Shown piece by piece: positions 9,279 through 64,000 of a DNA stretch of 64,000 nucleotides. The position numbers were made by a program, and so were the translations under genes. The notes under the pieces were generated by a model. The model had not been told where the DNA came from, made no database searches, and saw only the letters and a program-made list of their open reading frames with translations. The DNA lies in the NCBI RefSeq assembly GCF_055900595.2, contig NZ_CM148325.1; one strand, written 5' to 3'. Numbering within the stretch: the first letter of the stretch is position 1; each line of letters opens with the position of its first letter.

Positions 9279-9285
9279 TGTTTTG

Positions 9286-9318
9286 CACCTCATCCTGACA
9301 GGGCCCCCCTCAGGATGA
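9286..9318. terminator. bidirectional hairpin between convergent sapF and MFS gene
   Basis: cacctcatcctga / tcaggatgaggtg 13-bp inverted repeat around a cagggcccccc loop. Confidence 0.6.
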
Positions 9319-9326
9319 GGTGTTCA

Positions 9327-10490: not shown

Positions 10491-10498
10491 ATTATTCC

Positions 10499-11872: not shown

Positions 11873-11875
11873 AAC

Positions 11876-14800: not shown

Positions 14801-14983
14801 GCTGTTCTCCAGCGTTTCGGCAGAAGCACCAGTATAAGTGGCTGAAATTTTAATGGTCGGCGGTGCAACGTCAGGATATTGCGCGACGGGTAATGTGCGA
14901 ATAGCCAGAATCCCCGCCAACATAATCAAAATGGCGATAACCCAGGCAAAGACCGGGCGGCGAACAAAAAAGCGCGAAAACAT
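11876..14983 (-). CDS. RND multidrug efflux permease (AcrB/MexB-like)
   Basis: 1035 aa; N-terminus MFSRFFVRRPVFAWVIAILIMLAG and long stretches closely resemble AcrB as I recall it. Confidence 0.88.
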   Translation of the reverse strand: MFSRFFVRRPVFAWVIAILIMLAGILAIRTLPVAQYPDVAPPTIKISATYTGASAETLENSVTQVIEQQLTGLDNLLYFSSTSSSDGSVSINVTFEQGTDPDTAQVQVQNKIQQAESRLPSEVQQTGVTVEKSQSNFLLIAAVYDTTDKASSSDIADWLVSNVQDPLARVEGVGSLQVFGAEYAMRIWLDPAKLASYSLMPSDVQSAIEAQNVQVTAGKIGALPSPDTQQLTATVRAQSRLQTVDQFKNIIVKSQSDGAVVRIKDVARVEMGSEDYTAIGKLNGHPSAGVAVMLSPGANALNTATLVKDKIAEFQRNMPQGYDIAYPKDSTEFIKISVEDVIQTLFEAIVLVVCVMYLFLQNLRATLIPALAVPVVLLGTFGVLALFGYSINTLTLFAMVLAIGLLVDDAIVVVENVERIMRDEGLPAREATEKSMGEISGALVAIALVLSAVFLPMAFFGGSTGVIYRQFSITIISAMLLSVVVALTLTPALCGSVLQHVPPHKKGFFGAFNRFYRRTEDKYQRGVIYVLRRAARTMGLYVVLGGGMALMMWKLPGSFLPTEDQGEIMVQYTLPAGATAARTAEVNRQIVDWFLINEKANTDVIFTVDGFSFSGSGQNTGMAFVSLKNWSQRKGAENTAQAIALRATKELGTIRDATVFAMTPPAVDGLGQSNGFTFELLANGGTDRETLLQMRNQLIEKANQSPELHSVRANDLPQMPQLQVDIDSNKAVSLGLSLNDVTDTLSSAWGGTYVNDFIDRGRVKKVYIQGDSEFRSAPSDLGKWFVRGSDNAMTPFSAFATTRWLYGPERLVRYNGSAAYEIQGENATGFSSGDAMTKMEELANSLPAGTTWAWSGLSLQEKLASGQALSLYAVSILVVFLCLAALYESWSVPFSVILVIPLGLLGAALAAWMRDLNNDVYFQVALLTTIGLSSKNAILIVEFAEAAVAEGYSLSRAALRAAQTRLRPIIMTSLAFIAGVMPLAIATGAGANSRIAIGTGIIGGTLTATLLAIFFVPLFFVLVKRLFAGKPRRQE

Positions 14984-16104
14984 CAGGCATTGCCTCCATT
15001 AGCCTGAACTTCAACAGCCTTGACGGTCTGCCCTGAAGTGACTTTGGCAGAACCTTCAACAATCAGTCGGTCGCCGTTGTGCAGGCCGTTCAGCACCAGC
15101 CATTTATCACCATACGTTTCTCCCGTTTCGAGCGTTCGCTGCTCTACTTTATTGTCTTTATTCACCACCAGCGCAGTTGCATTGCCTTTAGCATCGCGCG
15201 TGACGCCCTGTTGAGGCGCGAGAATAGCGTTTTCCATCACGCCTTCATCGACACGAGCGCGAACAAACATTCCCGGTAATAACTGCTGTTGTGGATTGGG
15301 GAAAATTGCCCGTAATGTCACCGAACCGGTAGACTCATCCACCGCGACTTCGGTGAGTTCCAGACGCCCTTTTTCGCTGTAGGTTGTGCCATCTTCCAGA
15401 ATAAGTGAGACGCTCATGGTGTCACTGTTGGTCGCCAGTGACTGTTTACGCAGACGTAATAAATCGACACTGGAGCGAGTGAGGTCGACATACATTGTAT
15501 CCAGACCACGAATAGTCGTTAACGCTGTATCTTGCGACGCGGTCACCAGTGCGCCAGGGGTTACCGACGAAATGCCAATACGCCCCGAAATCGGCGCAGT
15601 GACCGTGGTCCAGTCAAGATTAATGCGCGCAGTTTCCAGTGCGGCTTTTTTCGCCTCTACACTGGCTTTATCTTGTGCACAGGTAGACTGAGCATCATCA
15701 GCATCCTGTTGTGAAACACCGTTCTCTTTCACCAGTCGGGCATAACGCTGCGCTTTCTGGCAATCGGCTTTTACCAGTGCCTGTGCTTGTTGTAATGCTG
15801 CCCGAGCTTCATTCCATGCAGCCTGATAACTGGCCGCATCAATCTGGTAGAGCGGCTGTCCAGCCTTGACCAGATCACCTTCCTTAAATAAGCGTTTCTG
15901 GATAATTCCCCCAACCTGCGGACGTACTTCGGCACTGAGCGCAGCACTGGTGCGTCCGGTTAATTCACTGACTACCGAGACCGGTTGAGATTTGACTGTA
16001 ACAACGCCGACTTCTGTTTCTGACGGGGATGAATTGTTACTTTGCGTATTATCACAACCAGATAAGAGCAGCATTGCCACTACAGATGTTGCTATATACT
16101 TCAT
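14983..16104 (-). CDS. RND efflux membrane fusion (periplasmic adaptor) lipoprotein
   Basis: ORF 14983..16137 trimmed to ATG at 16104 (MKYIATSVVAMLLLSGC lipobox) with GGAG RBS 8 nt upstream; AcrA-like translation. Confidence 0.8.
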   Translation of the reverse strand: MKYIATSVVAMLLLSGCDNTQSNNSSPSETEVGVVTVKSQPVSVVSELTGRTSAALSAEVRPQVGGIIQKRLFKEGDLVKAGQPLYQIDAASYQAAWNEARAALQQAQALVKADCQKAQRYARLVKENGVSQQDADDAQSTCAQDKASVEAKKAALETARINLDWTTVTAPISGRIGISSVTPGALVTASQDTALTTIRGLDTMYVDLTRSSVDLLRLRKQSLATNSDTMSVSLILEDGTTYSEKGRLELTEVAVDESTGSVTLRAIFPNPQQQLLPGMFVRARVDEGVMENAILAPQQGVTRDAKGNATALVVNKDNKVEQRTLETGETYGDKWLVLNGLHNGDRLIVEGSAKVTSGQTVKAVEVQANGGNA

Positions 16105-16131
16105 TATTTTCTCCAGGGTGAGAAATACCCT

Positions 16132-16151
16132 CCTCATTAAAATTAATGAGG
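16132..16151. promoter_or_regulatory. candidate operator palindrome upstream of the efflux operon
   Basis: cctcattaa-aa-ttaatgagg, perfect 9-bp inverted-repeat arms, about 30 bp upstream of the MFP start codon. Confidence 0.45.
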
Positions 16152-16252
16152 ATATGTCAGGGATATTCAGTTATAACGAACCCGCATCGCAAAATGAATT
16201 TCGCAATGAAATAAGGGGGATTAATATCCCCCGCTATTGGTTAATTCTGTTC

Positions 16253-16819
16253 TTATTTATTTATCAACATACTAACAATATCCTGATATATTTCCTGCAG
16301 ATGTTGTGGATCGCTTTTTTGCGGTGTTAAACGACGATAAACTGTACCTTCCATCATGGTAGCAAACACTTCAACGCAGCAACGAATGTGCTCGTCGCTA
16401 AGATGGGGATGCATTCTTTTCATATGTGCACAACCGTTAGCGAACATTCTGGCGTCAGCTTCTTCAAGCATTGCCATAACCCGCGGGTTGCGTGTGGCTT
16501 CTGCAGCCACTTCCAGCATCAGCGCGTCGTCGTCCTCATTTAAGGATTTACGCAAGGCAAGGACTTCCGGGAAGTGATCGGTACGCGCGTCAATGTCCAT
16601 TTGGGCAATACGAAAGTCGATGATACGGCGAACCATCTCTTCAATAATGGCGTCTTTGTTGGCGAAGTAACGATATATCTGACCCACGCTAAGCTGAGCT
16701 TCACTGGCAATTTGCGACATACTGGCGGCATGAAATCCGCAGCGACGAAAACACCGACGGGCGGCGTTAATGATTTCATCCTGACGCTGTTTGTGGCGTA
16801 TCTCCAGCTTGCTGGTCAT
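16253..16819 (-). CDS. TetR/AcrR-family transcriptional regulator
   Basis: ORF 16253..16840 trimmed to ATG at 16819 with AGGAGA RBS; N-terminal HTH typical of the TetR family. Confidence 0.8.
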   Translation of the reverse strand: MTSKLEIRHKQRQDEIINAARRCFRRCGFHAASMSQIASEAQLSVGQIYRYFANKDAIIEEMVRRIIDFRIAQMDIDARTDHFPEVLALRKSLNEDDDALMLEVAAEATRNPRVMAMLEEADARMFANGCAHMKRMHPHLSDEHIRCCVEVFATMMEGTVYRRLTPQKSDPQHLQEIYQDIVSMLINK

Positions 16820-16854
16820 TTCTGTCTCCTGGCCTATCACTTAGTGAGAATGAT

Positions 16855-16872
16855 CATTCTCATTTTTGCTAA
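16855..16872. promoter_or_regulatory. perfect 18-bp palindrome upstream of the tetR-family gene
   Basis: tgagaatgatcattctca is its own reverse complement; lies 36 bp upstream of the tetR start. Confidence 0.45.
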
Positions 16873-17295
16873 TTATACGTTTCTCCAAAGTAATGGAAAG
16901 TATTTTTATTTATTCATGATGCATATTCTGATAATGAAGAGATTGTGGAGATTCTGTGAAGATAGTTGACAATATTAAGTTGGAGTCAATTCATCAGAAA
17001 GACAGCGACTTATTGTCGCCAGTTCTGTTTTCATCATCAAACTTATCGGAGCTAATACGAATAGTTTCAAAGTCAGATTCTATAAGATATTTCCCCAACC
17101 TCCCCCTTGCAGGCGTCAGGAGTAGATAACGCAAAATGCTCTGTACCGCAGCTTCTCTCCGCTACAGAAAGCGCAACTATAGCCACCCACAGCCAGGTTG
17201 ATTATAATAACCGTTTATCTGTTCGTACTGTTTACTAAAACGACGAATCGCCTGATTTTCAGGCACAACAAGCATCAACAATAAGGATTAAAGCT

Positions 17296-39219: not shown

Positions 39220-39978
39220 ATGCATTACCAGCCAAAACAAGATTTACTCAATGATCGCATTATCCTGGTGACGGGAGCCAGCAATGGTATTGGTCGTGAA
39301 GCCGCGATGACGTATGCACGCTATGGTGCGACAGTGATTCTGTTGGGCCGTAATGAAGAAAAATTACGTCAGGTAGCCAGCCACATAAACGAAGAAACTG
39401 GGCGTCAGCCACAGTGGTTTATTCTCGATTTGCTGACCTGCACGTCCGAAGATTGCCAACAACTGGCACAGCGCATTGCCGTTAATTATCCGCGTCTGGA
39501 TGGTGTTTTGCATAATGCCGGATTGCTCGGCGATGTTTGCCCAATGAGCGAACAAAATCCGCAGGTCTGGCAGGACGTCATGCAGGTCAACGTTAATGCC
39601 ACCTTTATGCTCACCCAGGCACTGCTTCCTTTATTACTCAAATCGGACGCCGGTTCACTGGTCTTTACTTCATCAAGCGTTGGACGTCAGGGGCGTGCAA
39701 ACTGGGGCGCTTATGCAGCGTCGAAATTTGCCACCGAAGGGATGATGCAGGTACTGGCCGATGAATATCAGCAGCGCCTGCGCGTCAACTGCATTAACCC
39801 AGGTGGTACGCGCACCGCAATGCGCGCAAGCGCCTTCCCGACCGAAGATCCACAGAAACTTAAAACACCCGCTGATATCATGCCGCTCTACCTCTGGCTG
39901 ATGGGCGATGACAGCCGCCGTAAAACCGGCATGACCTTTGACGCCCAACCGGGCCGTAAACCAGGAATATCCCAATGA
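39220..39978 (+). CDS. yciK: short-chain dehydrogenase/reductase
   Basis: 252 aa; Rossmann motif TGASNGIG. Confidence 0.88.
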   Translation: MHYQPKQDLLNDRIILVTGASNGIGREAAMTYARYGATVILLGRNEEKLRQVASHINEETGRQPQWFILDLLTCTSEDCQQLAQRIAVNYPRLDGVLHNAGLLGDVCPMSEQNPQVWQDVMQVNVNATFMLTQALLPLLLKSDAGSLVFTSSSVGRQGRANWGAYAASKFATEGMMQVLADEYQQRLRVNCINPGGTRTAMRASAFPTEDPQKLKTPADIMPLYLWLMGDDSRRKTGMTFDAQPGRKPGISQ

Positions 39979-40565
39979 GTGATGAACGCTACCAACAGCG
40001 TCAGCAGCGTGTAAAAGATAAAGTGGATGCCCGTGTGGCCCAGGCCCAGGATGAACGCGGTATTATCATCGTCTTTACCGGCAATGGAAAAGGCAAAACC
40101 ACCGCAGCATTTGGTACGGCAACACGCGCAGTTGGTCACGGAAAAAAAGTGGGCGTCGTGCAGTTTATTAAAGGCACCTGGCCTAATGGCGAACGAAATC
40201 TGCTGGAACCACACGGCGTTGAATTTCAGGTGATGGCAACGGGCTTTACCTGGGATACGCAAAACCGCGAATCTGATACCGCGGCCTGCCGTGAAGTCTG
40301 GCAACATGCCAAACGAATGCTGGCCGATCCTTCACTGGATATGGTTTTGCTCGATGAGCTGACTTATATGGTGGCGTATGACTATTTGCCACTGGAAGAA
40401 GTGGTGCAGGCGTTAAATGAACGTCCACATCAACAGACGGTGATTATCACGGGTCGTGGTTGTCATCGGGATATTCTTGAACTGGCGGATACGGTAAGTG
40501 AATTACGCCCCGTCAAACATGCGTTTGATGCCGGTGTTAAGGCGCAAATCGGGATTGATTATTAA
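39975..40565 (+). CDS. btuR: cob(I)yrinic acid a,c-diamide adenosyltransferase
   Basis: 196 aa; P-loop GNGKGKTTAAFG; 4-bp overlap with yciK. Confidence 0.9.
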   Translation: MSDERYQQRQQRVKDKVDARVAQAQDERGIIIVFTGNGKGKTTAAFGTATRAVGHGKKVGVVQFIKGTWPNGERNLLEPHGVEFQVMATGFTWDTQNRESDTAACREVWQHAKRMLADPSLDMVLLDELTYMVAYDYLPLEEVVQALNERPHQQTVIITGRGCHRDILELADTVSELRPVKHAFDAGVKAQIGIDY

Positions 40566-40570
40566 GGGAA

Positions 40571-40601
40571 AGCACCTCAAAAGTTCGCCTCTTGAGGTGC
40601 T
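40571..40601. terminator. bidirectional hairpin between btuR and the three-gene islet
   Basis: agcacctcaa / ttgaggtgct 10-bp inverted repeat followed by aatttta. Confidence 0.6.
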
Positions 40602-40621
40602 AATTTTAGATACTGAATGGC

Positions 40622-40930
40622 TTAATTAGCCACGGCAAAATTAAGAAGAGCTTGAATTTTATTCAAGTGTGCGGGATATTCCATGTCATTATCCGCATTG
40701 ACGTCTTCAATAAACAGTATTAATTCAGTGATCAAATCATTAGCATCTTCATAACTAATACCAGTCAGTTCTGGTGACGTTTGCGAGCCATAATTAATTG
40801 TCAGATTATTCATTACCGACAAAACCAGAATAAAATATTTGTGACATATATCGCAAGTTGTTCGGTTTCCTAAGGCATAGTACAGCATATTGAGCAATGC
40901 CAGTATTCGTCGATTTTGCACATCGTTCAT
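40622..40930 (-). CDS. hypothetical small protein (102 aa), third gene of a low-GC islet operon
   Basis: Intact ORF 9 bp downstream of the preceding gene; no recognisable family; AT-rich codon usage unlike the flanks. Confidence 0.5.
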   Translation of the reverse strand: MNDVQNRRILALLNMLYYALGNRTTCDICHKYFILVLSVMNNLTINYGSQTSPELTGISYEDANDLITELILFIEDVNADNDMEYPAHLNKIQALLNFAVAN

Positions 40931-40939
40931 AATGACCTC

Positions 40940-41296
40940 CTATAACATAACTCCGCTGGCAATAAGAAGTTTTGCCAGCTCCTCTGACGCCTGTAGACCA
41001 CTAATAAATTGAGAACGCAGGATCTCATTCCTACGCTCTAAATCCGCTTTAGAAAGAGATTTATTAGAGTATAAATCTTGTAGATGATTTCCTTTATCCA
41101 TGAAGGCATTAATAGCTTGTATTGCTGGAGCCGCCGGATCAGATGAACGCAATCTGCTTTCATTAAGATTAATTACTGCACTCAAAAATTCCTGTCTACT
41201 CTTTAATGTTTTAAATTCTATGTTTTTAGTATTTGCTCGGGCCTTATTATAGTAATAAAAATTATTGCTGATGTTCGCAAAATTATTCCAATCCAT
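40940..41296 (-). CDS. hypothetical small protein (118 aa), second gene of the islet operon
   Basis: Intact ORF 17 bp downstream of the lipoprotein gene; hydrophilic; no recognisable family. Confidence 0.5.
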   Translation of the reverse strand: MDWNNFANISNNFYYYNKARANTKNIEFKTLKSRQEFLSAVINLNESRLRSSDPAAPAIQAINAFMDKGNHLQDLYSNKSLSKADLERRNEILRSQFISGLQASEELAKLLIASGVML

Positions 41297-41313
41297 TTGC
41301 TGCTGTTTCGTTG

Positions 41314-41961
41314 CTATATCATCGAGTAAATCTTGTAAATTTCTTTGAAGTCGTGGCCAGTACTACCTACCGTTTTACCAACATTTTCTGATTTAATCTT
41401 CTCTTTATATAATCCATTGAAATATTGAACTAAATCTTTAACAGCTACAGCTGACTTAGTCAGTTCTTCACCTTCTGAAAGGCCAAGTAGTTTTTGGGCG
41501 TTGTTTGCATGATCGAGCGCCTGATTAAGTAATATAATTTGTTTACTATCGTCAACATCCATATCCACCGTCAACAACTCCACATAGGAGCTCATACTGT
41601 TAACGACCTCAAGTGAAGCCAGTAGCTTTTGTTTTTCTGTGGTTGCCAATTGAACTTTAGTAACGTCTTTATACGATGTTTTGTCCCCTTTCTCTGATTG
41701 CATACATAAGGACTCTTTATTAGTATTATTTTCCATAATCGTTTCATAATCAGGTCGCAATGCACAATCCGGATTAGCCGCATAAAAATTAACAAGGAAG
41801 TTTTCACGAGAAGCATAGTATTGTTTAAAGAAACTTGCATTCGCCGCAACCGCCTTGTTACCCGCAGTAATAACAGTTTCAGCTTGTTCATTTTTCAATG
41901 TTTCAGTTGCACAACCTGAAAGCATTAACAGCGATAGAAATAATCCACTATATCTAATCAT
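41314..41961 (-). CDS. hypothetical lipoprotein (215 aa), first gene of the islet operon
   Basis: Signal peptide with lipobox LSGC (MIRYSGLFLSLLMLSGCATE); AGGTGG RBS upstream of the ATG; low GC. Confidence 0.55.
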   Translation of the reverse strand: MIRYSGLFLSLLMLSGCATETLKNEQAETVITAGNKAVAANASFFKQYYASRENFLVNFYAANPDCALRPDYETIMENNTNKESLCMQSEKGDKTSYKDVTKVQLATTEKQKLLASLEVVNSMSSYVELLTVDMDVDDSKQIILLNQALDHANNAQKLLGLSEGEELTKSAVAVKDLVQYFNGLYKEKIKSENVGKTVGSTGHDFKEIYKIYSMI

Positions 41962-42089
41962 AACCCACCTCTTGACGTTGAGTTTATCTCAGATAATTAA
42001 ATAGTAATGTGGCTATTCCCTGGCATTATTCATAAGCAAGTATGAAATTAAATTAAAATACTGCGACTATTTATCATGCTTCAAATGAA

Positions 42090-42109
42090 GAAAAGGCCCC
42101 GCAGGGCCT
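42090..42109 (-). terminator. rho-independent terminator after rluB
   Basis: minus-strand hairpin aggccctgcggggcct followed by a T-rich tract. Confidence 0.55.
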
Positions 42110-42130
42110 TTATTTAATACTTAACTTAAA

Positions 42131-43218: not shown

Positions 43219-45113
43219 TTACCAGCCACCACCGCCTCCGCCACCCGCACCGCCGCCAGCACCACCACCGGAATAGCTTCGCCCCAACAAACTGGTATTG
43301 GCCCCCAGACTCAGGTGCATCTGTAATGAAAACAAAACGCCACTACGGGCAATTTCCGGGGCGTGAACAGCCGCTGTGAGTGACGGCGTGATACGTGCTG
43401 CCCATTCTTTTCCAAGGTTTGCCGAGACTGCCCAACCTAGCAACGCGTAATCCAGTTTCCGTGTTTCCCCTTTCCGCCGACGCCCACTGTGTGTTGCTGC
43501 CTCTTTACGCGCAAGATAGTTAACGATAGCTTCACCGTGGGCATAACGTTGCTGCCCAGTTTGGGTAAACTTTGGCAGAAAAATATACCCCATGCCAGTG
43601 AGATAACCGGTCAGGAAAACAGCGCTAAAATAACCCGCAGGCATATACCAGTAAAAGAATACATCTCCGACATTGATGTAGAGAGAGTAAAAAGCCACAC
43701 CTGAACAAATCAGTGGTAAAAACAAAGTGATGATTACACGATTAACGCAAGGCTTGTCATCATCGCGTGCAAACAAAAGATCAAGGGAACAAAATAAAAA
43801 AGGAAGAAGCCAGCAGATCATAATAAACATATCGCCTACCAGACTCATTCCTGCCCAGCCTACGGGACTCAGGTTACCGTAGAGAATGACCGCCAATATT
43901 GCCATTCCGCCCCATTGCAAAAACGCATCAGGTCGGTAAAACGAAGACTTTTTACGCGGCAGATAAAATTTCTGCATCCGTAAAAATGCCCTGCGTAAGA
44001 CTCTGTTACGCCCCCCGTAAGAACGACCTTGTCGCCTTTACGAAATAACGTTTCCAGTAATATCTGCTCTGCGGGCAGTAATACCGCATTATTCCTGGTC
44101 GCACCTTCATTAACACGGATCAGGGTTTGCTGATTTTTGTCATACTGATCTTCCAGATGAATTTTTCCTTTCACAATCAGATTTACGATATCGGCACAAA
44201 AACCTTTATCGTCGTAAACCAGCTTCGCATCGAGACGTAACATTCCGGGCGTGTAATCTGGCGGAATGACATCGGTTTCAATCACATCTACCGGCGTAAA
44301 TTGCGGCCTGCGCTTCCAGAGATATAACCATCCACACGCCAGGAACAGACACGGAAACCAAATTAACAACGATGACGTAGAGGGTAAAAGAAGATGGCTG
44401 AAAATATTCGTCGTTTGTGGTGCCGGGGCATTACCAAGTAAAGCGTGAGGCCAGCGGTAGAGGACCGTGAAATCTTCACGATAAAACGGATCGCGGGATT
44501 CAATTCTTCCGTCCTCAAGGATGCGGCCATTTCGATATGTGTCGCCCTCTTCTCCGGTAAAGAGATCGATTTCGCTAAATGGATTACCCGCAATTTTAGA
44601 GAACTGGAGAGAAAATCGGGTCTTATAAATTTCAAACGGCCAGTTGTTACCGGTCACGTTCCAGATTAGCAGATCAGAATCCCCCTCACGCAGGAAAGCA
44701 TTTTTAACCTGATAATGAATTTGATAATGATAGTCGCCCTGAGGCAAGAAACGTTGTTTATCGCCCACGACAATGCTCATTAACCCGATATGCCAGTCAA
44801 GATGCCAGGGTTCAGGAACGCCGTCACGGGTGACGCCAACAATACGATAGTTCAGCACTGCTGCGTCCCCATCAGGCTGCATCCAGAGTCGTGGTAAATC
44901 ACGATAAAATCCGTGCTTAATCTGCTGATTTCGCGCCTGAAAATGAATGTTCTCTTTGATGTCGAGCACCCCATCCAGTTGCAGGGTGGCTTCAACATCA
45001 AAGAGCGAGATCCCTTCTTCATAAAAAGGGATCTCCGTGTTTTTCGCATAACTCAACGAAGAGAAAAAAAGCCCAACTATCAACAGCAAAATGCAGCGAA
45101 ACTTCCCTGCCAT
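43219..45113 (-). pseudogene. yciQ: yciQ-like membrane protein gene, frameshifted (or sequencing error)
   Basis: Two overlapping minus-strand ORFs (414 aa, 43869..45113, and 252 aa, 43219..43977) span 1895 nt, one base short of the 1896 nt needed for the 631-aa K-12 product I recall; a C6 homopolymer at 44011-44016 lies just upstream of the shift interval (43869..43977). Confidence 0.6.
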
Positions 45114-55321: not shown

Positions 55322-55660
55322 TGGCAGGTTTTAAAAAATCAAATAAGATATTGTATCTGAAAGAAAAAACAGGATTTTGAGATGCTTTTTTATACCGTTT
55401 TTCAGCGTTTTTAACTGCCTGATTTTATTGAAATCTTTTTTAGTTTTGCAGAAAGGATTTTTTGATCGATTGCTTTAATTTTATACATTCCTGATAACGG
55501 AAATTTTTTACCCGTTGACAGTTTTTATCCTCCGGGGCTATATTTCCAACGCGTCAGCAAAATCTGGCGTCGGGATTGGAACCCCGGATGTTTACGGAGC
55601 GATATGAGACGCGCCCGCGTCTTTTTTCATATCGTTTGCACAGTCACATTCGCGATTTAT

Positions 55661-55737
55661 GGCGGGCTGTGTGGGGGAGCCGAAAGGCTCGCCGGTTTCC
55701 GTACCCGGTAGTTCCAACCCCGCACAGTTCGCCACCA
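55661..55737 (+). other. structured element 1 (tRNA/tmRNA-3-prime-like, ends CCACCA)
   Basis: 77 nt; 13-bp outer stem GGCGGGCTGTGTG / CGCACAGTTCGCC (with G-U pairs) enclosing a GAGCC-GAAA-GGCTC hairpin; shares a 26-nt core with element 2. Confidence 0.4.
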
Positions 55738-55791
55738 TGATGATTGGAACCTGAAGGTGGCGATAATTTTCAAATGTACGGAGTTATCGTT

Positions 55792-56352
55792 ATGCCCACT
55801 CAAATTTCTGTCGACACTCTTCCTGCAATCACCCACAACCAGGTCCCCGTTATTACAACTGAACTTCTGGCGCAGTTATACGGAACAAAAATCAAAAACA
55901 TTTCTGATAACTTTCTGAACAACACGACGCGATTCGTGGTAGGAAAGCATTACTTTAAAATTGAAAAAAACGAATTACGCGAGTTTAAGAACAGACCCGA
56001 AACAATCGGGTTAGTTGGTAAAAATGCCCGCTCCCTTATCCTCTGGACAGAACGTGGCGCAGCCCGCCATGCCAAAATGCTCGAAACCGATCAGGCATGG
56101 GAAGTGTTCGAAAAACTGGAAGACTGTTATTTCAGCCAAAAACAACCACCAGCAACACAAAACTCACCCACCCCAAATGATGGATGCGCATTACTGATCC
56201 ACTTTGATAAACACGGTCAGGTAGAGTTCACAGAAAAAGTCCCCGCCGATGCGATGGTATGCACTCTGGAACGGTTTAAATTTTATCTGGAGCAACACGG
56301 CTGGCTCGTTGCCCGTAAAGAACAACTGGTGGAAAGGCTGATGCAGCTTTAG
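55792..56352 (+). CDS. phage antirepressor-like protein with N-terminal ORF6N/KilA-N-type domain
   Basis: Start taken at the ATG with GGAG RBS; translation ...VPVITTELLAQLYGTKIKNISDNFLNNTTRFVVGKHYFKIEKNELREF... resembles ORF6N-family phage proteins. Confidence 0.6.
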   Translation: MPTQISVDTLPAITHNQVPVITTELLAQLYGTKIKNISDNFLNNTTRFVVGKHYFKIEKNELREFKNRPETIGLVGKNARSLILWTERGAARHAKMLETDQAWEVFEKLEDCYFSQKQPPATQNSPTPNDGCALLIHFDKHGQVEFTEKVPADAMVCTLERFKFYLEQHGWLVARKEQLVERLMQL

Positions 56353-56402
56353 CAGATATAACAAGTGTTTTTTCTCGTATGCACGCGCACATATGAATTA
56401 TT

Positions 56403-56459
56403 GTGGGGCGCATGGGGGAGCCGAAAGGCTCGCCGGTTCAACTCCCGCCAGCTCCACCA
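56403..56459 (+). other. structured element 2 with ssrA (tmRNA) 3-prime-end-like sequence
   Basis: Core tgggggagccgaaaggctcgccggtt shared with element 1; last 25 nt GGTTCAACTCCCGCCAGCTCCACCA match my recollection of the tmRNA 3-prime terminus; followed by a T5 run. Confidence 0.45.
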
Positions 56460-56584
56460 TTTTTGACAGGACTGCAACCGGACATCGACAATAAAAACAG
56501 ATAATTACGGACACTGACCAGACAACAAACAGACCTGAACAAGACAAAAATATACACGTGAAATGCACGTGCACTTTATAAAAA

Positions 56585-56612
56585 CCCCAGATTTCACAGT
56601 CTGGGGTTTTTC
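56585..56612 (+). terminator. rho-independent terminator
   Basis: ccccagatttcacagtctgggg hairpin followed by ttttt. Confidence 0.6.
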
Positions 56613-56665
56613 TGTTTGTAAATAATGGTAACAAAAACACATCACCTTTTGGCGTTCCGTTCCTC

Positions 56666-56715
56666 TTGACACTGTTTATCCATACAGTTAAAAATAACAC
56701 TGTATACAAACACAG
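56666..56715 (+). promoter_or_regulatory. promoter with LexA (SOS) box upstream of the dinI-like gene
   Basis: TTGACA at 56666-56671, AT-rich -10 near 56689-56695, CTGT-N8-ACAG box ctgtatacaaacacag at 56700-56715, about 15 bp before the start codon. Confidence 0.65.
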
Positions 56716-56730
56716 TGTAGAGGGATTTTT

Positions 56731-56979
56731 ATGCGTATTGAAATCTGTATCGCTAAAGAAAAATTCAGTAAAATGCCAAAAGGCTCTGTACCTGCTCTAC
56801 AACAGGAAATGTCTAGCCGTATCAGAAAACGATATGACGATGTGGAGGTTATAGTAAAATCCGCCAGTAATGACGGACTGACCATTTTAAGAGCCGTAGA
56901 TAAAGAAAACGCTCAGAAGTTCATACAGGAAACGCTGCAGGAAGTCTGGGAAACTGCTGATGACTGGTTTTTTCACTAA
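56731..56979 (+). CDS. DinI-family DNA-damage-inducible protein (prophage-borne)
   Basis: 82 aa; [16 protein letters not shown]...[14 protein letters not shown] resembles DinI (MRIEV...WESADDWF); GAGGG RBS. Confidence 0.75.
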
Positions 56980-57362
56980 TCAGGACGTCAAATAAATAAC
57001 AACTGTAATTATTCTCTCCAAATTAACAATCTCTGTATACATACTCAGGCGTGTTCACGCATACAACACGCCTTTCTGATATTTAATTGTTTACAGAAAT
57101 ATTGCCGAATAAAAATATAAACCATAGTCTTAAAAAAATAATAATTCCACTATAGCTATCCCAGAACAACCAGTACAAATAATAAAAGACATATCACAGC
57201 AACACTCCACACTGACAGCGCAAAAATAAATGCCGCCTTTGTTATCTTCATATACAAGCAACCTGTCCTGATAATCACCAACTCATGTTTTATTCTTAAC
57301 CATTCGTCACAAATACAACAAAAAATAACAGCAGCAGCACCGATATCACAATATAAGATACA

Positions 57363-57818
57363 TTATTCAACACCTGAATCCCCCGCCGCTTCTCTCCCCT
57401 TTATAAAACGCCCCTTCCGGAATCCAGACCGCTGCAGTGCACGACGAAGATGACCGTATACCGTCTTGTCATTCTGCCCCGTCTCTTCTGTAATCTCCGC
57501 AATACTTAAACCTCTGTAATACCGGTTCAGTACCGCTCTGCGCTCTTCCAGCGTCAACACACCTCCGGCCGCTCTCAGATTCATCATCGACTTATTCAGA
57601 ATACAGCAGGCCTCTCCGGTAAAAAGAATACGAACAATATCTGTATACTCATCATCACAGAATACAAAATAATATCTGAATGACCTGCCTGACTGCACCC
57701 TTCTTCTGTCTGATATGGCATCTTCTATATATCTGATTCGACTGCTTACGGTTCCAAATATCTCTCGCAGGGCTTTTTCAAAATAAATATCTCTCGTCGC
57801 CAGGATTATATCCAGCAT
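57363..57818 (-). CDS. putative HTH regulator with sigma-70 region-4/LuxR-like C-terminus
   Basis: 151 aa; C-terminal LTLEERRAVLNRYYRGLSIAEITEETGQNDKTVYGHLRRALQR fits the region-4 HTH pattern; N-terminal part unassigned. Confidence 0.4.
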   Translation of the reverse strand: MLDIILATRDIYFEKALREIFGTVSSRIRYIEDAISDRRRVQSGRSFRYYFVFCDDEYTDIVRILFTGEACCILNKSMMNLRAAGGVLTLEERRAVLNRYYRGLSIAEITEETGQNDKTVYGHLRRALQRSGFRKGRFIKGREAAGDSGVE

Positions 57819-57836
57819 CTCTGTACCTCATTATAT

Positions 57837-57856
57837 CCCGGGGGACTCCCCCCGGG
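57837..57856 (-). terminator. GC-rich hairpin between the adhesin gene and the downstream regulator gene
   Basis: cccgggggactccccccggg inverted repeat; no clear U-run, so it may be an attenuator or processing structure rather than a terminator. Confidence 0.35.
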
Positions 57857-57879
57857 ACAGATATCTAAATCCTGACCTG

Positions 57880-59520
57880 TCAGAACTCAAAATTCACACC
57901 AGCATTCCACGATGCGGATGACCCACCTGCAGCAACTGCAACTTTTCCTGCCACATTCTCTGTGAAACGGTAGCCCACGCCCACCGCAATGGCCTGCTCA
58001 TCACGGTAACCACCAACGGCTGCTGTCGCGTTAAATTTTCCAACACTGTATGGCTGGAAAAGACCGGCCAGTGCCGCGCTCTGGGCTGCACTCTCCCTTA
58101 ACTCCTTCCGGTTCTCTTTAATCTGCTCCTGCATATTATTCATTCTCTCTGTCGCCATCTTCTGCCAGGCTTCCGTCAAATCCAGACGATGACTGTTATT
58201 CCTTATCGCTGCTGTATTTGAGGCTATTGCTGCATCCGTCTGCGCCACCGCTGCCGATGTGACTGCAATAATATCCCTGCTGAGTTCATCACGTACTGCT
58301 GTAACCTGACTGTCAGTATGAGCACGGGCATCTCTGTATACACCGCCTATCTCACCACGCAGACTGTCTCCCTCTGCCTTCAGTTCATCACGTACTGCTG
58401 TGACCTGACTGTCAGTATGAGCACGGGCATCTCTGTATACACCACCTATCTCACCACGCAGACTGTCTCCCTCTGCCTTCAGTTCATCACGTACTGCTGT
58501 GACCTGACTGTCAGTATGAGCACGGGCATCTCTGTATACACCGCCTATCTCACCACGCAGACTGTCTCCCTCTGCCTTCAGTTCATCACGTACTGCTGTG
58601 ACCTGACTGTCAGTATGAGCACGGGCATCTCTGTATACACCACCTATCTCACCACGCAGACTGTCTCCCTCTGCCTTCAGTTCATCACGTACTGCTGTGA
58701 CCTGACTGTCAGTATGAGCACGGGCATCTCTGTATACACCGCCTATCTCACCACGCAGACTGTCTCCCTCTGCCTTCAGTTCATCACGTACTGCTGTGAC
58801 CTGACTGTCAGTATGAGCACGGGCATCTCTGTATACACCACCTATCTCACCACGCAGACTGTCTCCCTGTGATTTCACTTCAACCCCAAGGTTGCGGGTA
58901 CGATTATCCAGCTCCACGACGAATTCTTTAACAGGGACTGTCTGAGCATTTCCGTCAGCCCTTCCGTCAGCAGTGATTCGGCCTGATGAATCCAGAACAA
59001 AATTCTGGCCTTCAACTACATTTTTATACAATGATGACAATCCCGATGTTGTATTACTAATTTTAATAAAATCCTCAGCGGTACCACCAGCATTAACAGC
59101 GGCGATATAATCATCCTTGTTTTCTGGCTTGATTATTTTTTGTAGTGATTCTTTTGTATCAACAATGGACTTTATATCTTCTGCTTTTATATTTCTGATG
59201 TTTTCGGCTTTTAATGCATCTGAGTAGATGGGGTAAGTTAGCAAATCCTGAGCAACAATATGCCTAGCATTCTCAGGAGCTGCTAATATAGCACGCGTAA
59301 TAGAATCATTCGGGACAATACGCCCTGTATTAGCTCCAGTAATAGTATTAATAAGATTAACATCATTACCTTTTGATATTACTGCCGCACCATTATCATA
59401 CAGAGTAACCTCATATCCATCTACATTAAAACTCTCTTCTGCCATAACCCCCACAGAGTAACATAACAGCGCACCGGTAACCGCCATTGCCAATACATTC
59501 TTTGCCATTATAAATTTCAT
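57880..59520 (-). CDS. YadA-like trimeric autotransporter adhesin (Eib-like), prophage-encoded
   Basis: 546 aa; signal peptide; C-terminus [62 protein letters not shown] matches the YadA membrane anchor; coiled-coil stalk with six 33-aa repeats. Confidence 0.8.
58285..58875. repeat. six tandem copies of a 99-bp unit inside the adhesin gene
   Basis: Near-identical 99-bp units encoding [33 protein letters not shown]; successive copies alternate a synonymous ccgcc/ccacc difference, so the array is effectively 3 x 198 bp. Confidence 0.9.
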
Positions 59521-59955
59521 ATGGTATATCCTGTTAAGAAGATTAAACTGTAACCCCCCCTGAATAAGCAGGCGAGATTCTTTTCCAGGATACCTTTCAG
59601 AGTCACCACTGCATTGATTTTAACAATCAATACAGTTAACATGGAATTATAGGATAAATGCACCCCGATAAAACAATATGAGCGTTCTTGTCCCCATATG
59701 TCAGCAGAGCATTCAGATATAGCTGTCAGAATAACCGTTTCCTACATCAGTCATTCATCACAGACTCAATTGTGAATCAGTTCACCTTTTTTGCAATTCC
59801 TTTATTGATCGAAAGCAGTTAATCACAGAAATTAATTACCGGAGTGAAAGCATTTGCTATGTAAACATTCCCAGAAGACATCTTCATGTTGAATATTATT
59901 CCCTTATTGACTACACCCCTCTGACAGAATTTTCAGAGGGGTTTTTTTATCAGTT

Positions 59956-60531
59956 TCACCATCCAACCCTGTACGCCAGAATGGTTTCACTGTCACTCAG
60001 TTCTGCTATTGCCTTTTTCATCTCCCTTTGCCTTATATGTATTTCAAGGCCTTTCCTGAACATCGCTTTACCAGCAGCATCACTCAGGGATATCAGTTCA
60101 TCTGCCGTCATCGGTACATCATTATTCTCTGCGTCCGTCCAGAAAAATCCTTCCGGCAACACACCGCCTCTGGCCGCTGATGCCGACATTCCAAGACGTG
60201 TCATGGCTTCCTTTCCATAATCCCATTTCCGTCCTCTGTGCTCAAAAACATACCCTGACGCCTCCATCGCATCACGCCAGGCATTTATCTCCGCGTTTTT
60301 CATCCTGCGTGCTTCTTCCACAGCCATATCATCATTTGCCCGGTACTCACCTACCGGCCCTGCATCACCTCTTATGCAGGCTTCAAATATTTCACGACCG
60401 TAAGACTCAGGATCATCCGCACTTGCTGTAAATACACATTCTGTTTCCGCGTCTGAAAACTTCACTATACAGTTTATGGTCGTATGACCCCTGTCAGCCC
60501 ACACTGGTGACGTGATTTTATCGACCTTCAT
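59956..60531 (-). CDS. putative phage tail-fibre assembly chaperone
   Basis: 191-aa ORF immediately downstream of the tail-fibre gene (15-bp gap); pattern resembles DUF4376-type chaperones; assignment is mainly by position. Confidence 0.45.
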   Translation of the reverse strand: MKVDKITSPVWADRGHTTINCIVKFSDAETECVFTASADDPESYGREIFEACIRGDAGPVGEYRANDDMAVEEARRMKNAEINAWRDAMEASGYVFEHRGRKWDYGKEAMTRLGMSASAARGGVLPEGFFWTDAENNDVPMTADELISLSDAAGKAMFRKGLEIHIRQREMKKAIAELSDSETILAYRVGW

Positions 60532-60545
60532 TCATTTCTCCCCTG

Positions 60546-62396
60546 TCACCGTATTCTCTGAAACAGGCCCCAAATCGTCCCAATGATATTATTGACTGTC
60601 ATGTTAGTTGTGCATAACATCCATGTACCAAGCATATGATTGCCAAATAAAAAGCGGATATCTGTAAGTTTATCCGATGACGACGACACAATAACGGCCT
60701 GTCTGATACGATACCCGGGTATTTCACGGGTATTTGTTACCTCATGATTTCGTTCTATGATCCCCAGAACATAAGACCCCACGGAATAAACACTTCCGAC
60801 GCTCGCTGGCTGCCCCGGCTGTCCCTGCGGACCTGCCGGGCCGCGTGCACCTGTATCGCCCTTTAGTCCCTGAGGACCTGCCGGGCCGCGTTCACCTGTA
60901 TCCCCCTTTAGTCCCTGTGGACCTGCCGGACCGCGTTCACCTGTATCGCCCTTTGGTCCCTGTGGGCCACGCTCCCCCTGGGCTCCCAGCTCTTTCCATT
61001 CAGACCAGGGGCCATTACCGGTAAAATTACCAGTAACAGTTCTTACGAACTTTCGTGGTGGGTTCCAGGTTGTATATTCATGCTGGCAATATCCCCATGC
61101 ACCAACTCTTACCTGAAGATAACCCGCTCTCTGAATCGGATAATTATTTTCTCGTGTAGCCCCACTGTCTGATGGCTGATAATAATCACCCTGATCGGTC
61201 ACTCGTCCCAGTCGGTTCAGATCACCATTCAGCAGTTGTCCACGGGCTGACTCTCCTCTTGGTCCCTGAGGGCCTTCCGGACCACGTGCACCTGTTTCGC
61301 CCTTTGCTCCCTGTGGACCTGCCGGGCCGCGTTCACCTGTTTCACCTTTTGGTCCCTGTGGACCTGCCGGGCCGCGTTCACCTGTATCCCCCTTTAGTCC
61401 CTGTGGACCTGCCGGACCGCGTTCACCTGTTTCACCTTTTGGTCCCTGTGGTCCTGCCGGGCCGCGTTCACCTGTTTCACCCTTTGCTCCCTGTGGACCT
61501 TCCGGGCCACGTTCACCTGTATCGCCCTTTAGTCCCTGTGGACCTGCCGGACCGCGTTCACCTGTTTCACCTTTTGGTCCCTGTGGACCTCCCGGATCTC
61601 CTTTATCCCCCTTAGGGCCTTTTTCTCCTCGCTCACCCTTTTCTCCCTTCAGACCCTGAGGGCCTTCCGGACCACGTGCACCTGTTTCGCCCTTTGCTCC
61701 CTGTGGACCTGCCGGGCCGCGTTCACCTGTTTCACCTTTTGGTCCCTGTGGACCTGCCGGGCCGCGTGCACCTGTTTCACCCTTTGGTCCCTGAGGACCT
61801 GCCGGGCCGCGTTCACCTGTATCGCCCTTTAGTCCCTGTGGACCTGCCGGACCGCGTTCACCTGTTTCACCTTTTGGTCCCTGTGGTCCTGCCGGGCCAC
61901 GTGCTCCTGTTTCACCTTTTGGCCCCTGTGGCCCGGTAATGCCTCTTTCACCACGTGCGCCGGTATCCCCTTTCTCTCCTCGTGGTCCCCGGGCAGATGC
62001 AGCTCGTTTCCGGGCTTCCTCCGCCTCAGATGCCGCGGACTCTGCTCTGTGCAGTATGGACTGCACCACAGCCTCCAGCTCTGACAACGCCTTCGGATAA
62101 TAAGGAGCATCTTCCATCTCCATCAGAAATTTATTCAGTGTTCCCGGTGAAGAATCCTCCCTGACCACGATATCTCCCACATACGAAGGACGGTAACCTT
62201 CTGTATTGAGTGTCACCCTGTATATTCCTGGCTCCACATCCATACTGTAACTCCCCGTCTCTTCCGGCATGCCATAAGCCACTGTCGTGGCGATGACTGT
62301 CTCGCTGGTTCTCTTCGCTTTCAGCTCAATAATGCATCCCGGTACCGGTTTTCCGGTTCCGTCCCTCAGCACGCCTGAAATTTTTACAGCCGCCAT
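60546..62396 (-). CDS. phage side tail fibre with collagen-like G-X-Y repeats
   Basis: 616 aa; N-terminus [18 protein letters not shown]...IELKAKR resembles the lambda Stf N-terminal domain; two long G-X-Y blocks separated by an ~90-aa non-collagenous insert; globular C-terminal domain. Confidence 0.8.
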
Positions 62397-62468
62397 ACTC
62401 GCTCCATAAAAAATAATCCCGCAAAATTGCGGGCGTCGTCATTCATTTACAATCGGGTGTTTTTATGA

Positions 62469-62714
62469 TTACTTCACGCACGAAACTTTCGTAAACATAT
62501 CTTCACTCACCCACTGACCATAAAATCTCGGAGCTGATACTTTATACACAGTGCCGCTTTTCGTTTCTATTTTCCCTGTAAGATCTACCGTATAAGCTCG
62601 CTGTAAAACCCCGGGACTCAGCACACCGGTGCACCGGACTCTCTCCGTAACGGAACGGTACCCCGCGCAACCTGATACAAGAAACAGCAAAAAAGTGCAG
62701 ACGATTATTTTCAT
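62469..62714 (-). CDS. small phage lipoprotein (possibly Cor-like superinfection-exclusion protein)
   Basis: 81 aa; signal peptide with lipobox LVSGC; lies between the tail genes and the tail fibre as cor genes do in some lambdoid phages. Confidence 0.4.
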   Translation of the reverse strand: MKIIVCTFLLFLVSGCAGYRSVTERVRCTGVLSPGVLQRAYTVDLTGKIETKSGTVYKVSAPRFYGQWVSEDMFTKVSCVK

Positions 62715-62735
62715 TACATGCCCTCAACATAACTA

Positions 62736-63398
62736 TCAGTACGCATCATAAATTTCTGCATTTATGTAATAACAGAGGTTATTAACAACACCTGAATTAT
62801 CATTGGGCGCCGCTACGTTATCTTCAGCAAAAGTTGACTGACGCCATAACTGTGAGTTTCTGGCATTAAAACTGGCGGTATACCAGTAATAACTCTCCCC
62901 TTCCTGAACTGTCGTCCACTGGGTACACCCCGGCATTACGGCCACATCATGTCCCACACTGATCGGTACATCCTTTTCCCATATTCGCGTCATTTTTACT
63001 TCCAGTGGCAGCATTTCCGTGTTCCAGACCACCCTGCCATGACTGTCGCACAACTGTATTCCCCATTGCGGCCATACATTCACCATGTTGGCAAAAACAT
63101 AAACAACATATGTGCTGTCCTGTTCCATGCCCGGCTCCTGCCCTGTACCAGCGCTGAAAATGTCATACTGCCAGGTACCGTTAAGCTGAACCATTTCACC
63201 ATGGAAGGACTGATTACCGCTTATCTGTTTAATAAAAATCACGCAACGATAATTCGTCGGCACCCCGGTGTCGATAAACTGCATCACCGCATCACGCGCA
63301 CTCAGTGTGAAATGAAAACGGCGCACAAGGTTCAGTGGCGGCGCAACAGGTGATATCCATTCTCTCCCCCGCTCATCAGTTAATTTAAGTGCAAACAT
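62736..63398 (-). CDS. hypothetical phage protein (220 aa)
   Basis: Intact ORF whose start codon overlaps the stop of the upstream gene; no family recognised. Confidence 0.45.
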   Translation of the reverse strand: MFALKLTDERGREWISPVAPPLNLVRRFHFTLSARDAVMQFIDTGVPTNYRCVIFIKQISGNQSFHGEMVQLNGTWQYDIFSAGTGQEPGMEQDSTYVVYVFANMVNVWPQWGIQLCDSHGRVVWNTEMLPLEVKMTRIWEKDVPISVGHDVAVMPGCTQWTTVQEGESYYWYTASFNARNSQLWRQSTFAEDNVAAPNDNSGVVNNLCYYINAEIYDAY

Positions 63399-63658
63399 CA
63401 GATCCCCCTTATCATGACCAGCACGGGTCTTAGCCAGCTTGTGTTGGCATAGTGCACTGTCCAGCCGGATACACTGGCACTGGTATGACTTCCCTGACCG
63501 TTAATCAGAATGGCCGGTGAACAGACTTCCAGACGCCAGCCCTGCAAAGGAGTATAAGAACGCTGCCCCGTCCCTTCAGTGATCACATCCAGCACCCCTG
63601 TTGGGTTTATTTCATGTGTCACAAGGCGCCCTTTGCGCCATACCCGGACTCCGAACAT
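63398..63658 (-). CDS. hypothetical phage protein (86 aa)
   Basis: Start ATG overlaps the upstream stop as TAATG at 63656-63660, and its own stop overlaps the next start. Confidence 0.4.
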   Translation of the reverse strand: MFGVRVWRKGRLVTHEINPTGVLDVITEGTGQRSYTPLQGWRLEVCSPAILINGQGSHTSASVSGWTVHYANTSWLRPVLVMIRGI

Positions 63659-64000
63659 TACAGTCTCCCCAGTCGTACTCTTAACACATTGTTATCGTCA
63701 TATACGTCGATTCGCTCGCCATTGAAAAACAGGCGGCCTGCGCCGGGCCTTCCTGAGTTAATTTCAAGGCTGCCGTTTCTTGATAAACGCCACCCCGGAC
63801 TACCGGAATGAAAATTATCTGACCGGATATCTCCCGTCACTCTGGCAAAATCCACGGTCAGTTTTTTCATGAAAACATCATTCATGAACAGCTGATCACC
63901 CTGAGCCACAAACAAAGGTGTTGTATTGCCATTTTCCGGGTTAATCATCACAATACGATCTGCCTGCATCAGGATCTGACTCTGAATTCCGTCAGACGTA
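63658..64000 (-). CDS. hypothetical phage protein, 5-prime partial (runs past the window edge)
   Basis: Reading frame stays open from 63658 to the window edge; the ATG at 63969 is internal. Confidence 0.4.

Follow-up and report, generated by a model that had tools for sequence, protein, structure and literature searches.

The window analyzed here is a stretch of 64,000 nucleotides from NCBI RefSeq assembly GCF_055900595.2 (contig NZ_CM148325.1), and all coordinates below are positions within it. Between btuR and rluB, it contains an AT-rich insert that is almost certainly a decayed copy of a conserved accessory cassette of two genes. The first of these encodes a 340-residue, predicted all-alpha lipoprotein with Ala at position +2, a hypervariable loop enclosed by two invariant cysteines, and, at the C terminus, a conserved amphipathic helix; the second, apparently coupled to the first in translation, encodes a 102-residue acidic, predicted four-helix protein without a signal peptide. 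In the window, the lipoprotein gene has been inactivated by a 1-bp deletion.

An earlier note on this DNA had proposed a three-gene operon, encoding one lipoprotein and two small cytoplasmic partners. The three minus-strand open reading frames (ORFs) that it listed are present as claimed, at 41314 to 41961 (215 residues, including the lipobox LSGC), 40940 to 41296 (118 residues), and 40622 to 40930 (102 residues), with gaps of 17 and 9 bp, and from the window alone an operon of three closely spaced genes is what one would read. Alignment to intact alleles refutes this model, however, and leaves it practically no probability: the first two ORFs are one gene, cut by the deletion, and the locus contains two genes.

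Gene content of the btuR-rluB insert

A global alignment of the window with Escherichia coli 22AR0010 yielded 43 differences, among which was exactly one indel, a missing G. The intact copy in 22AR0010 is a 1,023-bp coding sequence (CDS) for a 340-residue protein (WP_000622024.1), and restoring the G in silico turns the window copy into a 340-residue product with 14 substitutions relative to that protein. The 215-residue ORF corresponds to residues 1 to 200 of the lipoprotein plus 15 out-of-frame residues, and the 118-residue ORF, which is not preceded by a Shine-Dalgarno sequence, corresponds to residues 223 to 340 of the same protein. RefSeq genomes with the same DNA are annotated with two genes, the 1,023-bp CDS and a 309-bp CDS for the 102-residue protein (WP_001000715.1). 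A survey of the btuR-rluB junction across genomes likewise showed a lipoprotein gene followed by one small gene wherever the cassette was intact, an arrangement shared by all distant relatives except one (locus L019, discussed below). Since the identical deletion is found in an independent assembly, that of E. coli E200086, where the gene is annotated as frameshifted and is also interrupted by IS1, it represents a mutation of the lineage rather than a sequencing error. With its first gene inactivated in this way, the locus can yield at most a truncated lipoprotein of 200 residues, next to the partner protein. While the earlier note had ranked the insert as the strongest candidate in the window for an undescribed system, the copy found here is a decaying remnant and no longer a functional candidate.

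A second pseudogene is located two genes away, within 2 kb of the broken lipoprotein gene. The yciQ gene (DUF2207; 631 residues in K-12), at 43219 to 45113, is broken into two ORFs, of 414 and 252 residues, that overlap, and spans 1,895 nucleotides, versus 1,896 in K-12, which indicates a 1-bp frameshift; in E200086, yciQ is annotated as frameshifted as well. Together, the two broken genes suggest a lineage in gene decay, possibly Shigella or one resembling enteroinvasive E. coli.

The features of the insert are as follows.

40566 to 42130, no strand assigned: whole insert relative to the empty btuR-rluB site, 1,565 bp where K-12-type genomes have a 39-bp spacer (in a blastn comparison with K-12, the alignment is interrupted at 40565 and 42130).
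40572 to 40600, no strand assigned: hairpin GCACCTCAAAAG...CTCTTGAGGTGC, lying between the stop codons of btuR and the 102-residue gene (direct sequence reading; terminator-like scan match at 40586 to 40599).
40622 to 40930, minus strand: intact partner gene, encoding a 102-residue acidic protein with a net charge of -7 (ORF; protein identical to WP_001000715.1).
40931 to 40939, minus strand: 9-bp spacer with the GGAGG ribosome-binding site (RBS) of the partner gene (sequence ...ttataGGAGGtcattATG).
40940 to 41961, minus strand: lipoprotein gene, 340 residues if intact and a frameshifted pseudogene here, covering both the 215- and the 118-residue ORF (single indel in the alignment to the intact copy).
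Between 41361 and 41362, minus strand: site of the 1-bp deletion (G missing, codon 201), followed by 15 aberrant residues up to the stop at 41314.
41647 to 41775, minus strand: most variable segment of the lipoprotein, approximately residues 63 to 105, spanning the C66-C86 loop (identity per 20 columns down to 25 to 40%; nonsynonymous difference, pN, of 0.28 to 0.37; alleles differ by indels).
41911 to 41961, minus strand: signal peptide and lipobox, MIRYSGLFLSLLMLSG/C, i.e., LLMLSG/C (translation; the +2 residue is Ala).
41962 to 42091, minus strand: upstream leader and promoter region of the lipoprotein gene, with RBS GAGGTG (sequence comparison; nearly identical in the three E. coli alleles described below, despite their differing coding regions).
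42092 to 42111, minus strand: rluB terminator hairpin AAAGGCCCTGCGGGGCCTTT with T-run (terminator scan; also present at the Citrobacter locus).

As the earlier note had it, the insert is AT rich (GC content of 0.362 over 40566 to 42130; flanks, 0.509 and 0.491; whole window, 0.497), btuR and rluB are adjacent in K-12 (39 bp apart), and terminator-like hairpins lie at both ends. The two flanking genes end at 40565 (btuR) and 42131 (rluB), each followed by a hairpin, and the same 39-bp distance was found in O157:H7 SS52, ABU 83972, and strain 2017-02-1CC. The empty-site spacer contains a different hairpin of its own, occupied and empty sites being unlike across the whole spacer, and no target-site duplication was found when the two were compared. 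The hairpin at 40572 to 40600, which is kept in the other two E. coli alleles, probably serves as a shared bidirectional terminator, to judge from its position and structure. A promoter scan found no strong sigma-70 consensus in the region from 41962 to 42091, and a search of the insert against Rfam returned nothing credible.

The lipoprotein starts with MIRYSGLFLSLLMLSGC, as translated from the window, and its lipobox recurs in all 37 aligned family members. The +2 residue determines the membrane destination of a lipoprotein (the Lol sorting rule), and Ala at this position predicts a location in the outer membrane. Across the 37 members, only the lipid cysteine C17, C66, C86, and Y126 are invariant. 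Variation between alleles is central, with the first 60 codons and the last approximately 40 being conserved; the latter encode an amphipathic helix with a hydrophobic run of 9 to 12 residues (LLIASGVML), which is too short to span a membrane. This short run, lying within the amphipathic helix, also led us to reject the idea of a unimolecular spanin, which would require a transmembrane helix of about 20 residues. The AlphaFold2 model of the lipoprotein, built on an 11-sequence alignment before the distant homologs were known, has a predicted local distance difference test (pLDDT) score of 45 and is unusable for fold comparison; in this model, residues 63 to 105 or so form a nonhelical coil and the remainder is predicted to be all helical. 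Apart from family members, a Foldseek search with this model gave a few weak matches to helical-bundle proteins, whose automatically assigned labels include imelysin-like, PilJ/NarX-like, and TolC family.

The GGAGG in the 9-bp spacer suggests that translation of the partner gene is coupled to that of the lipoprotein gene. For the partner, AlphaFold2 predicted a four-helix bundle (pLDDT of 85 and predicted template modeling score of 0.81). The protein has no signal peptide, its N terminus being helix 1 of the bundle in the model (pLDDT of about 90), and Foldseek searches of PDB and AFDB50 with this model recovered generic four-helix bundles only. In the nine aligned sequences from Escherichia and Citrobacter, the partner contains an invariant C26-D-I-C29-H30 motif (CxxCH; codons 26 to 30, window positions 40841 to 40855) and an equally invariant H88, which together could form a metal site. 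The partners of distant lineages begin with acidic amphipathic helices and do not keep CxxCH or H88, with a single cysteine near residues 19 to 21 recurring instead. Although CxxCH is present, a c-type cytochrome was rejected, as there is no sign of export, no match to a Pfam cytochrome c family, and no family-wide conservation of the motif.

That the proteins fall outside recognized families, as had been claimed, was borne out by profile and sequence searches: neither the lipoprotein nor the partner had a significant match in Pfam, NCBIfam, PADLOC, PHROGs, or PDB (by sequence), and the 37-member lipoprotein profile had none in PDB. When the 37 members were scanned singly against Pfam, the only match with an E value of ≤0.001 was HEPN_DZIP3 in one member (8.5e-4), which we take to be due to chance.

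Alleles, distribution and selection

The compact, AT-rich module is accessory, as had been supposed: it is missing from K-12 and was found in 1,234 of 5,426 complete E. coli genomes (i.e., it is absent from approximately 77%), with a median of one and a maximum of two copies per genome. Every E. coli copy that was inspected sits between btuR and rluB. E. coli has at least three alleles, which we compared using 22AR0010 (allele A), MEW (allele B), and MLI106K1 (allele C) as representatives; of the 1,234 carriers, 775 have a copy with at least 95% identity to allele A, and the other 459 have one with approximately 71% identity. A search of 100,044 species-representative genomes identified a close relative only in Escherichia albertii and Escherichia whittamii, at the same site, and a Citrobacter strain also carries the cassette at this btuR-rluB site.

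Between alleles, identity amounts to approximately 65% for the lipoprotein and 74 to 93% for the partner. The divergence at synonymous sites (dS) of the cassette is 0.9 to 1.3 or saturated, roughly 10 times that of rluB (0.06 to 0.11), and the ratio of nonsynonymous to synonymous divergence (dN/dS) is 0.18 to 0.24, or 0.13 for the partner gene when alleles B and C are compared. A low dN/dS over such a high dS means that the genes are real and constrained and that the alleles long predate the core genome around them. The idea that the ORFs are spurious and the insert is AT-rich junk DNA without protein function could draw on the lack of family matches, the low GC content, the absence of a strong promoter consensus, and frequent inactivation, but it is refuted, with only the slightest chance of being right, by dN/dS values of 0.13 to 0.24 over saturated dS, by full-length homologs with a conserved lipobox and cysteines in several bacterial orders, and by the confident fold prediction for the partner.

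The first 60 codons of the lipoprotein gene and the 169-bp region upstream are approximately 98% identical between alleles, and this near-identity next to a diverged remainder marks a recombination boundary near codons 60 to 70. On the other side of the cassette, btuR (39975 to 40565) has a dS of 0.17 to 0.42 between strains with different cassette alleles, versus 0.06 to 0.11 for rluB, which is consistent with hitchhiking beside an old balanced polymorphism. Within allele A, by comparison, the window and 22AR0010 differ by a dS of 0.107 in the lipoprotein gene and 0.110 in rluB (dN/dS of 0.16 for the former). Because these values are equal, the cassette must have been inherited along with its flanks, and the frameshift is recent.

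The proposed horizontal acquisition of the insert therefore stands only in part. Relatives of the cassette do reside on mobile elements elsewhere, but the synonymous divergence within allele A matches that of rluB, and E. albertii, E. whittamii, and Citrobacter have the cassette at the same site. Judging from these comparisons, the cassette in Escherichia is an old resident polymorphism of the genus and not a recent arrival; more specifically, it is an ancient, multiallele presence/absence polymorphism, and the gene pair is conserved, kept by selection, and mobile on occasion.

The large gene has been inactivated more than once. Besides the frameshift shared by the window and E200086, IS1 was found at no fewer than four different positions, and in the E. 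albertii type strain NBRC 107761 (L024, 2898 to 3916), the lipoprotein gene contains an in-frame stop at codon 243 next to an intact partner gene. In one strain, the partner gene has been lost as well, to IS5.

Relatives and their surroundings

A profile search of 1.84 billion cluster representatives yielded 55 matches, approximately 30 of which are full length (324 to 357 residues). All of these full-length relatives start with a lipobox and all are labeled hypothetical by their sources. They occur in Buttiauxella, Raoultella, Klebsiella, Rahnella, Pantoea, Methylomonas, sphingomonads, and Chlorobiaceae, and homology to the distant members runs over the full length of the lipoprotein. The surroundings of individual relatives are listed here.

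Buttiauxella: within a P2-like prophage, as low-GC DNA separating the S-like from the V-like tail gene; this corresponds to the P2 orf30 slot.
Raoultella: island with an integrase, AlpA, putAbiC, HicB, and an IS element.
Klebsiella variicola: adjoining HamA and a helicase (Hachiman) and an integrase.
Rahnella: amid resolvases, an IS element, and a gene with a pore-forming colicin domain.
L021: near a colicin DNase and its immunity gene, and near TacA.
Methylomonas: near VapBC and Fic.
Sphingomonad: adjoining IS110.
Pantoea and Chlorobi: mostly ordinary transporter and metabolic genes; the Pantoea copy is also near an H-NS paralog and TraX.

An acidic protein of 96 to 107 residues without a signal peptide is encoded directly 3' of the lipoprotein gene in the enterobacterial loci and in six of seven more distant lineages. 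The exception is L019 (6001 to 12000), where the lipoprotein homolog has no small partner and is followed by genes for a 773-residue HExxH protein, a 138-residue membrane protein, a trypsin-like 410-residue protein, and a Trypco2-domain protein, forming a different conflict-type operon that may be larger. By BLAST, the partners of Escherichia, Citrobacter, and Buttiauxella form one group and the others a second, except for the sphingomonad partner, which matches nothing. An hhalign profile-profile comparison did not join the two groups (E value of 0.08), and the idea that partners are homologous across subfamilies was dropped; what is conserved across relatives is the slot and the type of protein, not a demonstrable homology of the partner. 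A third conserved gene was considered as well and dismissed, since the genes of approximately 410 residues that neighbor the lipoprotein gene at three distant loci (on its downstream side in L019 and on its upstream side in the other two) and a 348-residue gene upstream in Chlorobi are mutually nonhomologous.

Nearly identical cassettes of a lipoprotein gene and a 96-residue partner gene were found in Raoultella (L016, 5533 to 7305), K. variicola (L031, 6434 to 8206), and Rahnella (L033, 7001 to 8338), in three unrelated contexts, which shows that the pair was recently transferred as a unit. Upstream of the cassette, a 72-residue ORF is conserved in the Raoultella and Klebsiella copies. Because none of 50,697 phage genomes and no entry in IMG/VR contained a relative, carriage by phages must be the exception, with Buttiauxella providing the sole prophage-borne relative. 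Matches in the plasmid collection were confined to three records from E. coli, and two of these, one of 4.9 Mb and one containing trpL and rluB-btuR, are evidently chromosomal sequence. The plasmid match at 42% identity, CP054249, was discarded as an error-ridden copy of the same chromosomal locus.

Candidate functions of the intact cassette

Tentatively, and as something that is plausible but short of probable, we favor the view that the intact cassette is an envelope-level exclusion or immunity module. We do so because of the predicted extracytoplasmic location of the lipoprotein, the hypervariable loop between two invariant cysteines, the balanced polymorphism, and the mobile or conflict-related contexts of most relatives; given those neighborhoods, a conflict-type role is a reasonable lead. 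After export and lipidation, the lipoprotein of such a module would be sorted to the outer membrane, where its disulfide-bounded variable region would bind and block an incoming macromolecule, be it a phage tail or injection apparatus, a bacteriocin, or an effector acting in the periplasm. Frequency-dependent selection by such agents would then maintain both the old alleles and the empty site, and the cytoplasmic partner might keep the prelipoprotein export competent or harmless or, alternatively, neutralize a second part of the same invader. The localization, the C66-C86 disulfide, the binding, and the protective phenotype are all elements that we infer in this model.

Several observations weigh against it. 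Neither protein resembles a PADLOC defense model (no match at an E value of ≤1 in PADLOC-DB 2.0.0) or a PHROG, Pfam, or NCBIfam family, including those of known exclusion lipoproteins, and no relatives turned up in the phage collections searched. The mobile or conflict-rich character of most relatives' contexts is based on some 11 loci, with no background rate for comparison. The same holds for location in defense islands: relatives adjoin Hachiman and an integrase or putAbiC and HicB, or fill the P2 moron slot, but the Escherichia locus has housekeeping neighbors only, with no mobility genes around. Repeated inactivation of the lipoprotein gene (by frameshift, by IS1 at four or more positions, and by nonsense mutation) means that it is often dispensable or costly, and with a pLDDT of 45 for the lipoprotein model, no argument from fold is possible. 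The weak point of the model, however, is the partner: known exclusion lipoproteins act alone, which leaves an obligatory cytoplasmic protein unexplained.

An accessory envelope function outside conflict, for instance in adhesion within a particular niche, in the handling of nutrients or metals, or in protection from stress, is possible, if rather doubtful; the partner would then be a chaperone or regulator. Such a function would fit the partner of the Escherichia type, which might bind metal via C26, C29, H30, and H88 (CxxCH and H88 being invariant in Escherichia and Citrobacter), as well as a long-term chromosomal resident that is inherited with its flanks and under purifying selection, and the Chlorobi and Pantoea copies are situated amid ordinary transporter and metabolic genes. 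The weak Foldseek neighbors of the lipoprotein, moreover, are long periplasmic helical bundles. Those matches rest on the pLDDT-45 model, however, no member matches the Pfam imelysin or cytochrome families, and the Cys/His motif is confined to the Escherichia group. A deep multiallele polymorphism combined with a presence/absence pattern would also be unusual for a housekeeping role, and most contexts are mobile or conflict rich.

We consider it unlikely that the cassette is a toxin-immunity or addiction pair, in which the exported helical lipoprotein would be the toxin (acting on neighbors after transfer or on the cell's own envelope), the small acidic protein the immunity protein or antitoxin, and the alleles compatibility types. 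This explanation does account for the partner better than the exclusion model: a large variable protein is followed at 9 bp by a small acidic one, both genes diverge together between alleles, and partners of different subfamilies lack detectable homology (hhalign E value of 0.08), as fast-evolving immunity genes do. Colicin or pyocin genes lie near two of the loci, and in five cases (the window, E200086, WP4-S17, CP146670, and E. albertii) the disruption affects the big gene and spares the small one. With the big gene being a 3.3-fold larger mutational target, though, five such disruptions are not significant. None of the 37 members has a toxin domain, and homology extends over the full length, the C terminus being conserved instead of carrying exchangeable toxin modules. 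The pair is not linked to delivery machinery, and there are no arrays of orphan partner genes, the copy number in E. coli genomes having a median of one and a maximum of two. An immunity protein that is soluble and cytoplasmic would, in addition, be ill suited to a toxin exported to the envelope.

Set beside known systems, the cassette has no more than a general likeness to exclusion lipoproteins and to lipoprotein toxin-immunity pairs, and most of their testable defining features were not found in it. With the exclusion lipoproteins T5 Llp, phi80/N15 Cor, lambda Bor, TP-J34 Ltp, and F-plasmid TraT, it shares an accessory lipobox lipoprotein on AT-rich acquired DNA, one relative in a prophage moron slot, and a presence/absence pattern and allelic diversity that fit an arms race. 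It differs from them in having no sequence similarity (Pfam, PHROGs, NCBIfam), in the size and predicted structure of the protein (340 residues and all alpha versus approximately 60 to 240 residues), in the cytoplasmic partner gene that nearly always accompanies the lipoprotein, and in being absent from the searched phage collections, the window copy being chromosomal and free of mobility genes. Similarly, the cassette is like Myxococcus SitA/SitI and the colicin, contact-dependent inhibition, and Rhs modules in that a small cytoplasmic protein is encoded immediately after a lipoprotein, allele pairs are multiple and divergent, mobile DNA can carry the genes, and the small downstream gene (here at a 9-bp spacer) diversifies with the large one. 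Unlike these, the cassette has no recognizable toxin domain (37 members; PDB sequence search), no transfer system, and no orphan immunity arrays, and its variation is central, with a conserved C terminus, within one homologous family.

The P2 orf30 moron slot, between tail genes S and V, is occupied in Buttiauxella by a low-GC insert positioned exactly between the S-like and V-like genes, but P2 Orf30 itself is the product of a single, nonessential gene of 261 residues on the opposite strand, and a tblastn search of a phage collection that includes P2 gave no match to the cassette. Periplasmic or lipoprotein immunity proteins (those of the type VI secretion Tli/Tai type, colicin M Cmi, and pesticin Pim) are comparable in being accessory and strain variable, in their predicted orientation toward the periplasm, and in that they can be orphan genes on mobile DNA; they need no cytoplasmic partner, however, no homology to them was shown, and no cognate effector is known for the cassette. 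Finally, imelysin-like lipoproteins and PilJ/NarX-type sensor domains are alike in size (330 to 350 residues), all-alpha structure, and lipoprotein character, and are weak Foldseek neighbors at 15 to 18% identity. Membership of the imelysin-like family (Peptidase_M75) was rejected, as none of the 37 members matches Pfam PF09375 or has a conserved HxxE-type motif, and the sole link is a Foldseek E value of 2e-3 obtained with the pLDDT-45 model.

Returning to the exclusion or immunity module, a bolder version of it, which we regard as doubtful though not far-fetched, would see in the intact cassette the first member of an as yet undescribed class of envelope conflict modules that are mobile and consist of two genes. 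Specificity would reside in the disulfide-bounded loop of an outer-membrane helical lipoprotein, a fast-evolving acidic cytoplasmic partner would be required, and an ancient balanced polymorphism of alleles and a null state would be directed against phages, bacteriocins, or contact-dependent attack, by a mechanism unlike that of any cataloged system. In the literature, we found no published description of the cassette.

Elsewhere in the window, two regions differ from K-12. The 7.9 kb from 9278 to 17172 have no K-12 counterpart (K-12 has only ycjD between sapF and fabI) and encode a TetR-type regulator, a resistance-nodulation-division (RND) adaptor and permease, a NodT-type outer-membrane factor, and a Bcr/CflA pump of the major facilitator superfamily. 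From 55331 to 64000, synteny with K-12 stops near yciE/ompW, and these last 8.7 kb have no match in K-12 from 1.300 to 1.375 Mb; they encode a protein with a YadA-like trimeric autotransporter anchor (57880 to 59520) and a collagen-like repeat protein (60546 to 62396).

For the genome studied here, the finding is a modest one: its lipoprotein gene is dead and, along with the frameshifted yciQ, is mainly evidence of gene decay in the lineage. The family as a whole is uncharacterized and bears an unusual evolutionary signature, and the intact alleles in other strains merit testing. If the intact cassette does protect the envelope or mediate competition, it would add a lipoprotein-based module without homology to cataloged systems and would explain why about a quarter of E. 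coli strains, including those of the sequence type 131 (ST131) type, carry this 1.5-kb locus as alleles far older than the neighboring core genes. It would also offer a handle on a rare family, comprising some 55 clusters among 1.8 billion representatives, that extends over Enterobacterales, Methylomonas, sphingomonads, and Chlorobi.

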